NCBI GenBank assembly: GCA_000182565.2 | Contig: KQ257461.1 | Length of the DNA stretch: 64,000 bases | Source: Spizellomyces punctatus DAOM BR117 | Lineage: Eukaryota | Reading direction: 5' to 3' (one strand) | Made by a program: the position numbers and the translations under genes | Part shown: positions 24,312 through 54,310 of the stretch, piece after piece | Layout: each line of letters opens with the position of its first letter | Position numbering within the stretch: the stretch's first letter is position 1 | The notes under the pieces: generated by a model | What the model saw: only the letters and a program-made list of their open reading frames with translations | Database searches by the model: none | Told to the model about the DNA's origin: nothing

Positions 24312-26483
24312 CTATCCAGACTCCAGAGCAACCACAGGCTCCACCCCCTTGTAAAACGGACCTTCTCGTACATATCGTTGGAATCGACCGATAATGTTTG
24401 CATCAAGTATCTCATTCGCATTAGGATTGGAACATATCGCTTGCACCACGCTGTACTTCCATTCCTTTGAGAGCAAGTGAACAATTTGGTCAGCTGCAAA
24501 CTCTGACGCACGGTGACACCGAACACACCTTGCCAGTCACTGATGGCTCAATCTGCCGGTCCATTAAAAACGATACAAAATCATAGCTGTAGTTGATTTC
24601 ACGCAGACCCCAGTCATGCATCGCCATGCCTTTGAAAATTGCATATGCAGCTACTCGGTTCTCTTCAAATGCTGCCTTTGCGTAACGCATCAGATTTTGC
24701 AATGGGTTTGCTTCTCCTGCAGTGCCAATCATGCAAAGAGCATTGAGTGGTTGGTAGCAGACGACAAGTTCAGTTTCAATAGCATACCTGCAATGCCCAG
24801 GAATATTCGATGTGTGATTGCAGATAAACCAGCACCGGAGCTTGATTTCACACCAATCAAGCAAGAGGCAGACTGTAATCCTGTTATTTTCAGGTCCCCC
24901 GTGGTAGAGTTGATTTGGTCAATAAAATCATTCAGCAGAGTTTTCTGCTCGTCAAGTGCCACCAGCCCTTCAGCACTCGATCCAATGTTTCCAATTGCGA
25001 GGATTACGGGCTCCTATTGCGCGCAAGCCTAAATGTTATTACCATGTCCCCTTCAGTATCCCGCAACGCGGCAGCGTCATACCGCCAGTTCTTTTCGATC
25101 ACTGTTGAGCTGCCGGTCGAACAAATCCAAAATCCCCAACGATGAATGCATGGCGACGAAATCGGCGGGCTGATACATGGGATAGAGCACTAAGGATTCT
25201 GAGGCGCTGGCTTTTGCTATAAAATTATGCTCGTACCTTGGTTGCAGCGACATGACCAAAGAACTTGATGATGGCAGATTTGACAAGAATGTCGTCAATG
25301 TCCCCGGCGTCGGTTTCAAGTATGCCAGCGAGTTGCACGAGTACGTTTGCATTGTGTAGAAAGCGGTTTCCGCATTCACTTTCCGACAGCTGATCGTTCA
25401 CCTTATTCAGCGAACTAAGAGAGGAATGCAGCAACGCCATGATTTATGACCTTGGTAAATATTTGCACCGCATTCAATCGAGACAGCACATCATCAGAGT
25501 GCAGTTCTTCTGTCATTGACTTCAAAAGATCGGAACTTTGGAATTGATGCAGCACCTCATCGGATATTGTGCATATTCGCATCGCGAGGTCATACACTCT
25601 AAACTTTACGGTTTCGCTTTCCGCAAGAAGCTGGTTAAGGATTGACAGAGCGTCGTCCCCAAGAATAGCTTGGAGGCCCGTCTCCGAATGAGCAATCTGC
25701 AGGTCATTACAAGCACATGAGATCCAATACGGTAGAAGCTAAGCATCACACGAGTATCACCTTGAAGAGAAGGTTTTCCACCCGTAGGGCCACATCAACA
25801 TCAGGAAAAGCAAGACTCTCCAAAACAGGAACGAAGAACGGGGATTGGATCTATCTATCTCGTCAGCAAACCTGGTTCCGCCCAACTCCGGCTTATGCAT
25901 AAGATGTACGCACCAACATGTTAATCGTAGCATCTGCGTCTGTAGCCTTCTCTAATGCCGATAAGGCTAAATGTCGCAATGGTCCGCGTGGATCATCAAG
26001 GCCCGCAATGATGAGTTGCTAGTGCGGGGTGAGAGACCTCGCTCACCAACAGATATTTGCCGCTGCACCATGTCCTACTTACCCCAAATCTACTTTGTAT
26101 TTCTTGATAAGAAAGTGGTTGTAGTAATCGTTGTATGATTTTGGCAATGTTTCTTTGGACGGAATCATCCATATGCGAGAGAGGAAGGAGGGCTATAAAT
26201 GGTTCTGGAGAAAGGTCGTATCTTGCTATCAAGTCCCGAGCGTTGTCTCCAGACACCCCTATATGGCCATGTATGAGATATAGTAGTGGCGGTGATCTCC
26301 CAACCTCAGTGATCTCCAACCTTCCAAAGCAAGGGCAATTGTTGTTAAAGCAGTGGCGAGTCTCTGCATATCGGGCGTATTTGGGACTGCTCGAACAATA
26401 GCAATGGCCTCTGATAGTACGGCATCCTGTAAATTACTGTTGTTAATACCGGTGCTGGTCGAATGTGGCATTGTGGTAGGCAT
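24312..26483 (-). CDS. PSMD5: 26S proteasome regulatory-particle assembly chaperone PSMD5/Hsm3-like, multi-exon
   Basis: ARM/HEAT-like helices; KFRVYDLA, DDVLSRLNAVQI, GSEWKY; C-terminal RYVREGPFYKGVEPVVALE characteristic of PSMD5. Confidence 0.8.
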
Positions 26484-26599
26484 AGGTATGGCAATGTCGT
26501 ACGCGTATTCAATTGGGATCTGCGATTACTCACCAGAGATCTCGTGACCGGATTCAGCTGTAAGTCATGTGACATGTGTTGTGATTCACCCTACCTCTG

Positions 26600-26660
26600 A
26601 TTGGCTGCACGTTTTTTTCGCGTATGGCGCAGTCGGCCCAGCGCGTCTATAAAAGCCGCG
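26600..26660 (+). promoter_or_regulatory. Pol II-type core promoter (inverted CCAAT, TTTCGCG, TATAAAA), divergent from PSMD5 and facing the hairpin array
   Basis: ATTGG 26600-26604, TTTCGCG 26616-26622 and TATAAAAG 26648-26655, followed by a pyrimidine-rich initiator-like tract at ~26672-26690. Confidence 0.55.
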
Positions 26661-26730
26661 CCCAGCTCGCGTTTCCTCTGCTTTCCATCCCAGTCAAGCG
26701 CGCTAGTGTCCCGTTGGTAAGATCTTTTAC

Positions 26731-27410
26731 GGCCTTCTGGAGCGGCGGTGTCGTGCTGGAATGCCTCTAGTTGTCCTGCTGGAGCGGCTCTTTTGCCGTG
26801 CTGGAGGGACTTTGGTCTTTTGTTCTGCTTGGGGCGGCTCGTGTGTTAAGAGCTGTCCCGGAAGAACTTCTGGCATTCTGGAGCGACAGTGTCGTGCTGG
26901 AGGGACTAGGTTTTTGTGTTTCTGGCTTTCTGGAGCGTCACTTCATCCTGTTTGAGCGACTGTATCGTGCTGGTAGGCCTCTAGTTGTCCTGCTGGAGCG
27001 ACTACTTGGTCGTGCTGGAGGGACTTTGGTTTTATGCTCTTTCTGGCCTGTGGAGCGATACAGTCGTGAGGGATGAAGCCGTGCTGGAAGCTATGTTGTC
27101 CTGCTGGAGCGGCTACTTTGCCGTGCTGGAGGGACTAGGCTGTTTTTCTTCTTTTTTCTGGCTTTCTGGAGCGTCACTTCGTCCTGTTTGAGCGATTGTA
27201 TCGTGCTGGAAGGCCTCTATTTATCCTGCTGGAGCGACTACTTGGTCGTGCTGGAGGGATTTTGGTTTTCTGTTCTGCTGGAGCGGCGTTGCCGTTCTCG
27301 CTGGACCTTTCTGGTCTGTGGAGCGATACAGTCGTGAGGGGTGAAGCCGTGCTGGAAGCTACGTTGTCCTGCTGGAGCGGCTACTTGGCCGTGCTGGAGG
27401 GGCTAGGCTG
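26731..27410 (+). ncRNA. Candidate structured non-coding RNA: array of ~13 related hairpins (UGCUGGAG core) in ~240-270-nt higher-order repeats
   Basis: Repeated GUCC-UGCUGGAG-CGRY-loop-RYCG-UGCUGGAG-GGAC units separated by U-rich linkers. Compensatory changes between copies, G-U pairing on the + strand only, and no credible ORF. Confidence 0.6.
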
Positions 27411-28467
27411 TTTTTTCTTTTGGCTCCCATAGGACACTTTCGATCCACATTTTATTTTGGCATCAGTCTTCGGGAAACCGAAGCGGGCTAATGGGCCTAT
27501 GGTGCGTCCCCAGCCGCACGACTGCTTTTGCAAGAACACAGAGGGGCCTGTTGTCGAGTATCGTTTTGTTTGAAAGAAATATTGGATAGTGTACAATAAT
27601 GATTACCATTTCACCAAAGAGTATCTGGAATTCTTTCGCTCAGTCGCCGAGTGCAAGCGCCATAGCACTATGTTATACAATCTCTGGCGCAAAATCAAAG
27701 TCTCACATTGGTTGTGTTTTATAGTAATATGATTTTCAGCACTGCCTTCTGAGGTGGCGGTTCCCAAGCTGACTGTTTTCTTTGAAGCAGCCAAGGATAA
27801 GAATGTGCGCATGAAAGAAACCGTTGGATTCCAAGACTTACCCCAGTCATCTACTCGACTGCTTCCGCGTTTCTACAAATGTGTTATGTAGACACATTCG
27901 GTAGGTCAACCCGTACTGCAAAAGCAAATGACACCCGGATGCATGCAATATACGGCGTGGAAGCACAGTTGTGTTGGAAACCGCGAATTGCTCAAAATAG
28001 ATTAAAGGCAAAGTTTAGGCGATTCTTCCAAAACTTGGAGAGCTTTCGACCACTTCTTGGAGATGACATTAACATCTGGATGTCAATGCATGCGGTTGAC
28101 GCAAATTCGTCCCCAGCGATGAATGATCCAATTTCTTGAAAGAATGGAAACTATTGGGTAGTAGTTTTGCTTTTTCGACCAAATGCTGTACTAAAAATGC
28201 ACATGTATAATAGTCGGTTTTACAGTCCGCTGTTCGATTTTCATGTTCTCTATTCGCAGAGCAACTCTACGGGGCATCCAGTACTGCGCAATCTGGACAA
28301 CAAAGCAAATGAAAGGACGCTAACCTTGCAGCCATGAACGTTCCAGGAAGTTAGCTAAAAGAGTAAGCACATGAGCTCTCGCCTAAAATCTCGTGATCGT
28401 ATTGCTTACGTCCGCGTCAATTTGACTTCCGCTATCCGTGATACTGACGACCTACTTTGCTAGAGAA

Positions 28468-30855
28468 ATGCTTCAAGAATATATTAGCGCATCAGAAGCA
28501 TTATGGGCTATTTTAGATGAAACTACAGGGATTCGCCCGATTGTGCACAAACATGAAATCACGGAAGTGCCCCAGGAACGAACCTCGCCTGGCAAAACCT
28601 CCACTTCAAAATCATCCAGCAGTATCAAACCTTTGAATATTGTAGAGTGTGGACATGACTGTCATACTACCTACCTCGATGGACATCTACCGCCTCTACC
28701 AGGTTCAGACCCTGGAAAGAAGCATCTGCCAAAAACCGAGCACAAGATGAATTGGAATAAATCGCATCATAAGGCACAGCTTGTATTGTCGGACGTATCG
28801 GATGAGGAAGAAGAGGGAATATTCTTAGATCCAGAAGTAGATCCCTGGGCTGAAGGTGAGGACGTGATAGTAAAGCGTAGACTTGGTCGACACATCAACT
28901 GAGACGCTCATAGTTTGCAAACGAATATCTAGCGGATCTTTCGTGGAGTGACGAGGCGCCGACTCTTAAGAAACTTTACATGTCGCAGCGGCAGTGGCCA
29001 CGCAAGAAGAGAACAGCATCGCAAATGGACTTCAGTAAAGAGTCCATACTAGGATATTTCCGCACATTACGATTGCATGATAGGAAGATAGGATACATTG
29101 ACAGGGACATCATGAAGATGCGAAATTTGGAGGAGTTGAGTTTAACTGGAAATTGGATCGATCATGTAAATAGTCTCCCGACAAGGTTACAAATACTGCA
29201 TCTGAATGCTAACCGGTGAGCAAGCAAAGCAGAACCTGAAAACACGTCTCCGTTAATTAACTCACATGCATGTTGCAAAGACTGTCAAAGTGCCCGAATG
29301 TCTCGGCCCTTCAGCAATTGGTCCACCTTGGTATTGGGTATAACTCTATTGCCAGTTTTTTGGATGTTGAACTTCGCCCCGAGTCACCGCCCAAATCGTC
29401 TTCTGCAAACCCACGTCCCAGAAAACTTTCGCCTTTGTCTGGTTCAAAACCCAGTACAACTTTGGGTTGGTTGCCACCGAGCTTGAAGTCATTAGACGCC
29501 AGCTGGAATGCTATATCCGATTTAAACGAGACACTTGAAGTTCTTGAGCAACTACCCTCGCTAAAGATTCTGGCACTTACGGTAAGCGCGAATTGCACCA
29601 GGCGTGCAACAGCGAGACATGGATTGCGATTAATGTCTTTACCTTTTCAAGGGAAATCCAGCTTTTCTTCTTCCCAAATATCGAGCGTCCGCAATTTCGC
29701 GCCTTCCAGGGCTTGTTTCATTAGATGATACATGGGTGACCGCCGAAGAGAGGACCACGTCGCTTAGGATAGTTCGGGAGGACGCACGCGACGAAGGTAT
29801 TGCATTATGATTCCAGTGGACTGAACAAAGGGTACTAAACTTTACCCACACAGTGTGTATATCATTCGGTATTCATACTCTTACCGGGTTCTCTATACCG
29901 GAATCGGTTATACCCGAGGATCCAAAGCAGCCACTGGACGAGTACACTTTCCAGCTACGAATTGTACTTGAAAGGTTCAATGGCTATGCGATATCCACCC
30001 CCGCTGTATCCCCCCCGCAGCGTGTCCACCAGCCACCAGATAAGCCGCATAAATCCGGTAAGGGGAAAGGTGGAGACGTGCAACCACCCGAGCCGGAAGT
30101 TCATCTTGTAGACTTTGCCTTCGTGCAAGAGATTGAATTTCCCATCGGAAAGCAGCTTCGGGATGCTCTGTGGGGTACGTGGAGACGCTGCTCTGTTGTT
30201 GTTGGGGTCCACGGTACACTGCTAACTCCTTGTAGATGGGGTAACTGTCATACTCAGCCGCAATAGAGTTGCCTACGTCAGGAAGGATGACCTCGCACCT
30301 GACGAGAACGACACCAGTACCCGGCCTGATAGTTCAGCCGCTACCTCTAGACGTCCTTCCCTGTCAGGTAAAAAAGGAGGGAGCCAAGCTGGAAGAAAAC
30401 CTGCCAAGGCTGCAAAAGGGAGGAAGGGCGCCAAAGAAGATGAAGCAGGTAATACACTAGAACTGTTAAATGCATTTCGCTTGTACCTGACACCTTCTCC
30501 ATCTTTCGAAGCGAACTGGAGGCCAGTAATAGCCGAGAGAACTGACATTGGTCTTTGCCGTGTGTCCACGAAACCCTTTCTCGATGGAGAGGTGAGTGGA
30601 CGAACACTGCCTATCCAATATGCTACTAACTGAGCGTCCTCTCCTTTCAAGAACGTCATTGAACAGGAGTGCGATCTAACGATTCCGGTGAAAGACTCCC
30701 ATTCTCCTACATCGTCCACCGTTGTGGGAACAGTACATCTATCGTTCCGCTTGAATCCGCTGACGGAGGAGAGGGCAGGCGGCCCAAGTGATGAAAACGA
30801 TGCGCCTGACGGAGTACGCTTAGGTCATGGCCATGAGAGTACTGAAGAAGAATAG
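28468..30855 (+). CDS. Leucine-rich repeat protein, LRRC43-like, multi-exon
   Basis: DPWA.., YFRTLRLHDRKIGYIDRDIMKMRNLEELSLTGN, LQILHLNAN, LVHLGIGYN, LKSLDASWNAISDL..L.QLPSLKILAL.GNP..L..YR (SDS22-like LRRs with cap) and a Lys-rich C-terminal region. Start approximate. Confidence 0.75.
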
Positions 30856-54255: not shown

Positions 54256-54310
54256 ATTTGCATAAAAGCATTTGCATAAAAGCATGTGGATAAAAGCATG
54301 TGGATAAAAT
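54256..54310. repeat. 14-bp tandem repeat x4 (ATTTGCATAAAAGC x2, ATGTGGATAAAAGC x2)
   Basis: Directly visible; the last copy is truncated. Confidence 0.85.

Follow-up and report, generated by a model that had tools for sequence, protein, structure and literature searches.

The 64,000-nucleotide stretch of Spizellomyces punctatus DAOM BR117 analysed here (GenBank assembly GCA_000182565.2, contig KQ257461.1; hereafter the window) contains an array of RNA hairpin modules between a gene for a PSMD5-like proteasome chaperone and a gene with weak leucine-rich repeat (LRR) matches. As far as these data go, the array is a separate unit in a 2-kb intergenic space and is not the untranslated region of either neighbour. 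The best-supported reading, which we put forward tentatively, is that the locus encodes a structured non-coding RNA that would act as a scaffold or decoy. We will describe the array, the fold of its modules, its transcription and its lack of coding signal, and then weigh this reading against four others.

The hairpin array

Thirteen hairpin modules are found on the plus strand at 26729-27405 (Table 1), in agreement with the original prediction of about 13 hairpins. A covariance model was built from an alignment of nine of the modules (alignment A2) and searched against the whole window. This search gave 11 strong matches (E of 1.5e-5 or less), all on the plus strand and all within the array. 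In the remaining 63 kb the best match had an E of 0.6, so that the array accounts for every copy in the window. The two weak modules, 7 and 12, were matched in a covariance-model search of 1.1 kb with E of 0.07 and 0.04, respectively. The modules are distributed over three super-units as 4 + 4 + 5. Five full units begin at 26773, 26987, 27098, 27223 and 27366 with exactly the sequence that had been described for them, and every one of the stem variants listed beforehand (CGAC/GUCG, CGGC/GCCG, CGAU/AUCG, AUCC/GGAU and GUCC/GGGC) is present.

The motif content of the array is strongly one-sided. The sequence TGCTGGAG occurs 16 times in the window, and 12 of the 16 copies fall at 26777-27399, all 12 on the plus strand; dinucleotide-preserving shuffles contain a mean of 2.16 copies per window and none of 100 shuffles reached 16. 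CTGG is present 27 times in the array and CCAG is absent from it, whereas the two are present 243 and 252 times, respectively, across the whole window. The plus strand of the array is composed of 34% G, 33% T, 21% C and 12% A, and the skew (AT about -0.45, GC +0.2 to +0.28) is limited to 26650-27400.

The closing duplex and its fold

Every module is closed by a shared duplex of two half-sites, YUGGAGCG on the 5' side and CGUGCUGGA on the 3' side. UGGAGCG is intact in 12 of the 13 5' half-sites, and in module 3 it is replaced by UGGGGCG. The half-sites pair as C-G, U.G, G.U and G-C, bordered on each side by a G.A mismatch, which gives a near two-fold symmetric duplex of about 12 bp with two symmetric G.A mismatches and a tandem U.G/G.U at its centre. 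In module 3 one G.A is changed to G-C and one G.U to G-C, and 15 of 15 positions pair.

The five full units form 38-nt hairpins of -16.6 to -20.2 kcal/mol. On the plus strand these hairpins have z-scores of -2.7 to -4.1, and 0-3 of 200 shuffles match their stability; on the minus strand the z-scores are -0.5 to -1.6 and 15-61 of 200 shuffles do so. Nine local hairpins range from -13.6 to -26.0 kcal/mol on the plus strand and from -3.1 to -14.2 kcal/mol as reverse complements. For a 721-nt stretch the difference is larger, with -314.2 kcal/mol and a z-score of -8.87 (20 shuffles) on the plus strand and -173.2 kcal/mol and a z-score of -1.56 on the minus strand; the fold is strand-specific, as had been anticipated. 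RNAalifold, a check that had been suggested for the aligned units, recovered a 14-pair hairpin from alignment A2 without being supplied with a structure. The non-repeated 3' tail (27404-27635) has no excess structure (z-score +0.83).

The minimum-energy fold of the array is not a simple row of hairpins. In this fold module 5 pairs with module 7 and module 9 with module 12, forming two composite hairpins of about 175 nt, each with a full hairpin at its tip. The inserts of modules 5 and 7 are complementary, and their pairing includes an 11-bp helix, CGACUGUAUCG/CGAUACAGUCG. The shorter variants had been described as hairpins; the modules are present, but four of them pair at long range rather than locally in the minimum-energy fold. 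Since any half-site fits any other, two architectures compete, one with local hairpins and one with pairing between modules. A perfect 6-bp hairpin with a GAAA loop (CUUCGG-GAAA-CCGAAG) is also present in the tail at 27467-27485.

Organisation of the repeats

Tandem Repeats Finder assigns periods of 22-23 and 111 to the array. These are part of a higher-order repeat in which a super-unit of about 236 nt is made up of a 122-nt part and a 109-nt part. The 122-nt part is present in three copies (26705, 26919 and 27155) and the 109-nt part in two (27039 and 27307). The last two super-unit copies are 93-95% identical and the first copy is older, with 71% identity. A 32-nt insertion is found in super-unit 2 only. 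With regard to a dispersed transposon or MITE, there are no copies in the window outside the array, and the repeat finder gave no DNA inverted repeat with a length of at least 14 nt. Besides the array, one tandem repeat in the window scores 80 or more; it lies at 54259-54309 and consists of 3.6 copies of the 14-nt unit TGCATAAAAGCATG.

Differences between copies

The evidence that pairing is preserved beyond what repetition alone would produce is positive, if modest. Standard pairs are formed in 121 of the 126 cells of alignment A2 (96%), compared with 41-57% after a shift of the 3' partners by 1-3 columns, and the same register read on the minus strand pairs in 86 of 126 cells. Two-sided changes are present in four of the 14 pairs (6 cells), so that the proposal of pair-preserving differences between copies is borne out at this level. 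The covariation score of the alignment is 0.246 compared with 0.160 in shuffles, and it was reached by 1 of 500 shuffles. Tracing the duplication history gave about five independent double changes. At the two G.A positions 5 of 18 cells deviate, and each of the five carries a Watson-Crick pair instead (two U-A, two G-C and one A-U); since all of these replacements are Watson-Crick, the pairing register is fixed.

Super-units 1 and 2 differ by 16 substitutions, 7 of which are within helices common to both folds. All five single transitions in the shared helices (at 26945, 26960, 27047, 27073 and 27134) interconvert Watson-Crick and G.U pairs (binomial p = 0.03, taking one half for each), and on the minus strand all five would become C.A mismatches. 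Additionally, positions 26987 and 27024 carry one double change from G-C to A-U between the super-units.

Transcription of the locus

The locus is transcribed. A search for sequencing runs found 24, four of which were aligned to 25900-28900. From the raw RNA run X18 a sample of about 6% (26.4 million records) was used, and 308 records aligned on this 3-kb stretch. The depth in X18 is 0 in 26506-26606 and 26.5 in 26708-26808; it is then 4.6-9.8 across the array, returns to 12.5-24.3 in 27415-27616 and is at most 2.5 past 27617. The first mates are all on the plus strand across the stretch covered by reads (about 26697-27616). A second pile of read starts at 27501 (7 reads) and 27506 (8 reads) is located in the non-repeated tail, where the depth is 24. 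The transcript may be processed or initiated a second time here, or the pile may belong to a separate RNA of about 130 nt.

Root metatranscriptome contigs from one study (runs X4 and X5) cover 26711-27253 and 26702-27345 with a word depth of 9-17. The depth in X4 and X5 is zero on both flanking genes, so the signal is RNA and not contaminating DNA. These contigs are about 99% identical to the window, with four differing positions and one 1-nt deletion. No splice joints were reported in the reads or contigs aligned over the locus, and there is therefore no sign of introns. Run X1 was rejected as evidence for expression: its contigs, of low depth, extend over an intron and the promoter gap as well, and it was therefore taken to be DNA, possibly from the sample behind the assembly of the window. 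Run X9 gave 0.06 of words and nothing was drawn from it.

Strand of the transcript

The RNA is probably the plus strand. The original prediction of a plus-strand transcript is supported as regards transcription (X18, X4 and X5), but the read orientation in X18 is compatible with either strand. Several other observations favour the plus strand. The piled read starts fall on purines, and a TATA box precedes them (Table 1), together with an ATTGG that we take to be a CCAAT box in reverse orientation. At five of six loose-end sites listed, the consensus has a non-templated G beside the aligned part, which we interpret as capped 5' ends in a library that reads the sense strand. The coverage drops at about 27616-27631, 20-35 nt past an AAUAAU that we take as the poly(A) signal. 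No T-run was seen in the loose ends at 26697/8, where a poly(A) tail read in antisense would give one. The dependence of the structure on G.U pairs also points to the plus strand.

Coding capacity and relatives

Only short open reading frames (ORFs) had been expected in the array, and the longest stop-to-stop ORF is indeed 101 amino acids and the longest ATG ORF 64 amino acids. The latter opens at the first AUG of the plus-strand RNA (26761), which follows 63 nt of leader. Each repeat interrupts the frames, and the length of the 32-nt insertion is not a multiple of three. No relatives of the array frames (101 and 97 amino acids) were found among 5.8 billion proteins. A comparison with 1.8 billion representatives gave one match (E 2.8e-5) to a 246-amino-acid repeat ORF, which was rejected as a relative because its repeat is unrelated.

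The array also does not correspond to a known RNA family, as had been suspected. Rfam 15, whose families include snoRNAs, snRNAs, microRNA precursors and known lncRNA domains, gave no match inside the transcript at E of 10 or less in a scan of 26000-28200, and no match in the whole window at the gathering score. The sole match in 26000-28200 is to sR4, at 27742-27816 on the minus strand, outside the array and with 14.7 bits against a gathering score of 50. No small nucleolar RNA family matched within the transcript, and no C/D or H/ACA boxes were seen in the modules by eye. Three known motifs were considered from the sequence and dropped. The G.A pairs are single, symmetric and without a bulge, which does not fit a kink-turn; CUGG is located in stems and not in loops, which does not fit a Smaug-type loop; and one module resembles the loop of the histone stem-loop but lacks its stem. 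A metagenome scan for TGCTGGAGCGRC-N(4-8)-GYCGTGCTGGAG returned 11 loci, all single matches on contigs of 55-74% G+C without an array, and these were attributed to chance. In the literature, the matches listed for UGCUGGAG include papers on small interfering RNAs, primers and microRNAs and no relevant RNA element. A search for Spizellomyces together with non-coding RNA, long non-coding RNA (lncRNA) or transcriptome returned nothing on such an RNA.

Features and neighbouring genes

The coordinates of the modules and of the features of the transcribed unit are collected in Table 1.

Table 1. Coordinates of the hairpin modules, promoter elements and transcript features in the window.
Feature	Position	Strand	Description	Score or basis
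ATTGG	26600..26604	+	within the 226 nt between the transcript and the divergent PSMD5-like gene; second copy at 26512	
TATAAAAG (TATA box)	26648..26655	+	TATAAA starts at 26648 and is unique on + within 26400-27900; the read-start pile follows ~49 nt downstream	
Transcribed unit, ~0.93 kb	26697..27631	+ (probable)		read depth
Transcript left edge, sharp	26697..26713	+		read-start piles at 26697, 26698 and 26713; metatranscriptome contigs begin at 26702 and 26711
M1 (module 1)	26729..26767	+	inner stem CGGC/GUCG, one G.U pair	44.6 bits
H1a (module 2)	26771..26812	+	full hairpin	65.8 bits
M3 (module 3)	26820..26869	+	diverged copy	40.1 bits
H2z (module 4)	26870..26908	+	inner stem CGAC/GUCG, degenerate outer stem	48.7 bits
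LHa1 (module 5)	26922..26981	+	5' arm, long hairpin of super-unit 1	26.4 bits
H1b (module 6)	26985..27026	+	full hairpin, tip of long hairpin	64.7 bits
LHb1 (module 7)	27043..27093	+	3' arm, long hairpin	8.9 bits, weak
H2a (module 8)	27096..27137	+	full hairpin	65.2 bits
LHa2 (module 9)	27158..27217	+	5' arm, long hairpin of super-unit 2	30.7 bits
H1c (module 10)	27221..27262	+	full hairpin; outer pair A-U, G-C in other copies	61.5 bits
Ins (module 11)	27270..27308	+	extra module on the 32-nt insertion unique to super-unit 2	44.1 bits
LHb2 (module 12)	27311..27361	+	3' arm, long hairpin of super-unit 2	9.7 bits, weak
H2b (module 13)	27364..27405	+	full hairpin; outer pair G.U	62.5 bits
Non-repeated 3' tail	27406..27631	+	UGUA at 27590, AAUAAU at 27595-27600	

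The PSMD5-like gene occupies 24315-26471 on the minus strand and is divergent from the array. It has at least six exons (26471-26319, 26259-26083, 26018-25758 and onward), and its start codon at 26471 is 226 nt from the left edge of the array. Intron 2 (26019-26082, 64 nt) reads GTAAGT...TAG on the minus strand. Pfam PF10508 matches the gene in descending order. One fragment shares 91% identity with a Spizellomyces sp. 'palustris' protein, in keeping with an origin of the window in or near this chytrid genus. The downstream gene (28468-30633, plus strand) has weak LRR_4 and LRR_8 matches that are below the Pfam cut-offs, and it is almost uncovered in the RNA sample. Cover is low and in both orientations at 27617-28525 (depth 0.2-2.5), which takes in the otherwise featureless 0.8-kb spacer (27632-28425).

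Interpretation and alternative explanations

On the preferred reading, the locus is an independent gene of a Spizellomyces-type chytrid and gives rise to a non-coding RNA of about 0.93 kb. It is most likely transcribed by RNA polymerase II from the plus strand, using a CCAAT/TATA promoter that is back-to-back with the PSMD5-like gene, and the transcript would start at about 26697 and end at about 27625 after the AAUAAU signal. The first ~710 nt would form the 13 hairpin modules with U-rich linkers between them, and the modules may either fold locally into 13 hairpins or pair mutually into the two composite hairpins. The repeated duplex is a putative multicopy binding site, probably for a dimer-binding protein, and the RNA may act as a multivalent scaffold or decoy; a role as a sponge or scaffold is plausible. 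In a more specific form of this proposal, which is possible but doubtful, the 26 compatible half-sites would make up 13 symmetric G.A/G.U duplexes that are a candidate new element read by a dimeric protein. With half-sites able to pair in cis or between molecules, the RNA could switch between a beads-on-a-string and a networked state and might seed or buffer RNA-protein condensates, for example in the RNA-rich zoospore.

A number of observations weigh against a selected structure or favour a rival explanation, a young transcribed minisatellite with no function of its own. On this view the array arose by amplification of a quasi-palindromic ~22-nt unit, its hairpins are passive and the transcript is a by-product of a bidirectional PSMD5 promoter. 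The array is a higher-order repeat whose last two super-units are still 93-95% identical, and copies as young as these offer few independent events. Paired positions are not depleted of substitutions (9/150, compared with 7/86 at unpaired positions, p = 0.59). The covariation of the original prediction amounts to about five independent double changes and five wobble changes, which are few for a strict correction for recent duplication. The change at 26974 (U>A) gives an A.G mismatch if homologous pairing is assumed. Four variants are found in one metatranscriptome contig, and two of them (26967 G>A and 27002 C>A) break pairs; a third (26783 A>T) improves pairing from G.A to G.U and the fourth is neutral and matches the state of super-unit 2. 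By our own arithmetic, a random 12-mer is self-complementary at five of six symmetric pairs, with G.U allowed, in about 3% of cases. No relative was found in the metagenome pattern scan or in the protein searches. Additionally, expression is moderate (about 300 reads in 13 million pairs); it is above that of both neighbours in the same sample, but it is not extreme. A passive minisatellite would, however, not be expected to keep wobble pairing in all five single transitions of the shared helices or to accumulate the independent double changes. Of the 16 facing positions (two G.A sites and 14 scored pairs), 12-15 still pair in the old and diverged modules M1, M3 and Ins, where Watson-Crick pairs take the place of G.A. 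UGGAGCG is kept in nearly all modules while the linkers and loops drift, and the unit comes with a TATA box of its own and ends at a defined 3' position. We consider the minisatellite unlikely.

The remaining explanations concern what is made from the locus. If the RNA were the minus strand, it would be C/A-rich and weakly structured, start near 27630 and run toward the PSMD5-like gene, and it could modulate PSMD5 by transcriptional interference. The prt lncRNA of fission yeast, which is reported to act on pho1, provides a precedent for such interference (PMC4911910). A TATAAA is present on the minus strand at 27718-27723. The X18 first mates are on the plus strand not only over the array but also over 25900-26101 (depth 4.7-7.1), inside the minus-strand PSMD5-like gene and largely over its intron 2 and exon 3. 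The commonest stranded libraries give first mates antisense to the RNA; with such a library, and with the PSMD5 reads in this orientation, the RNA of the array would be the poorly folding minus strand, which is a further point against the structured-RNA reading. The bin 26001-26101, however, is mostly intron 2 of the PSMD5-like gene and has about ten times the depth of exons 1-2 (0.5-1.0), so the reads there are not plain PSMD5 mRNA and are a poor calibration of strand; retention of the intron, an internal start or an antisense transcript could account for them. Over exon 1 a few first mates are on the minus strand, as would be given by a library in which the first mate is sense. Nearly all first mates begin with about 9-10 unaligned, near-random letters that resemble an in-read tag, and second mates are seldom aligned (10 of 308), so that the library layout is non-standard. 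The neighbours calibrate the strand weakly, with plus-strand mates largely on the intron, a few minus-strand mates on exon 1 and almost no cover on the LRR gene. The end of coverage is about 90-100 nt from the minus-strand TATAAA and much closer to the plus-strand AAUAAU, the loose ends lack the T-run, and both the G.U-dependent structure and its preservation would be coincidental on the minus strand, which makes a minus-strand RNA improbable. The RNA could instead be a small-RNA precursor, from a polycistronic microRNA-like or hairpin-siRNA (small interfering RNA) locus from which the imperfect ~175-nt hairpins or the 38-42-nt hairpins (17-bp stems) are cut. The hairpins are long, G.U-rich, mismatched and strand-specific, there are several per transcript, and the internal read starts at 27501 and 27506 are discrete. 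The conserved element, however, is a short internal duplex in every module and not an arm of 21-24 nt, the read-start piles lie outside the hairpins, and read and contig cover is continuous across the array; a precursor of this kind is quite improbable. It is very improbable that the transcript is the mRNA of a small protein, a cysteine-rich product of the 64-codon ORF. The position of that ORF at the first AUG, close to the 5' end, is what such an mRNA would have, but the same frame is repeatedly closed in later repeats and the 32-nt insertion would shift it. The 101- and 97-amino-acid frames are without relatives (the 64-amino-acid ORF overlaps the former in frame and was not itself queried), and the single variant inside the ORF is non-synonymous. 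The structured non-coding RNA is therefore retained as the preferred explanation.

Comparison with known repeat RNAs

To our knowledge, almost nothing is known about the non-coding RNAs of zoosporic fungi. The locus described here is a compact and tractable case, with a short transcript, its own promoter and one sharply defined repeated duplex. If a protein reads the duplex, the locus would provide a new RNA recognition element and an independent fungal case of an RNA with many copies of one site; if the RNA is networked and read by a dimer, it would be the first structured repeat lncRNA of such a design, in an early-diverging fungus. If it is a passive minisatellite, it would be a clean case of a quasi-palindromic repeat that mimics a selected RNA structure.

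Repeat-module lncRNAs are stand-alone transcripts without coding capacity that contain many copies of one element, and the locus has both features, with 13 modules of which 12 carry UGGAGCG. NORAD is a human lncRNA, conserved across mammals, that restrains PUMILIO proteins through single-stranded PUMILIO elements in units of about 300 nt. Like NORAD, the array RNA would be a stand-alone, non-coding RNA polymerase II transcript in which one element is repeated many times and a structured part is combined with U-rich spacers. In contrast to NORAD, its repeated element is itself base-paired, as a duplex with two-fold symmetry in 40-60-nt modules, and the two RNAs are unrelated in sequence. The A-repeat of Xist, which recruits SPEN, lies within a mammalian RNA of 17 kb. 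It shares with the array short G/C-rich cores, about 8 to 13 repeats, U-rich linkers and pairing within or between repeats, and in both cases the array may be read as a multivalent platform for protein. The cores are unrelated, however, and in the chytrid the array makes up about three quarters of the transcript.

A fungal comparison is provided by meiRNA of fission yeast, a decoy for Mmi1 in which the DSR (determinant of selective removal) hexamers are single-stranded and scattered. Both are fungal non-coding RNAs with many copies of one short motif, which in meiRNA lures an RNA-binding protein; the array differs from meiRNA in its hairpin modules and there is no sequence relation. CsrB and RsmZ are bacterial sponge RNAs that titrate a dimeric protein by means of GGA motifs in hairpin loops. 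The array resembles them in that near-identical hairpins are arranged on one small RNA. Unlike in CsrB, the conserved element is the stem itself, and no Rfam match connects the array to this bacterial RNA. The array follows the same logic as the known repeat-module RNAs and has none of their sequences, and its repeated element is a symmetric duplex, not a motif in a loop or in single-stranded RNA. We regard the array as a good candidate for a new structured repeat RNA of an early-diverging fungus.

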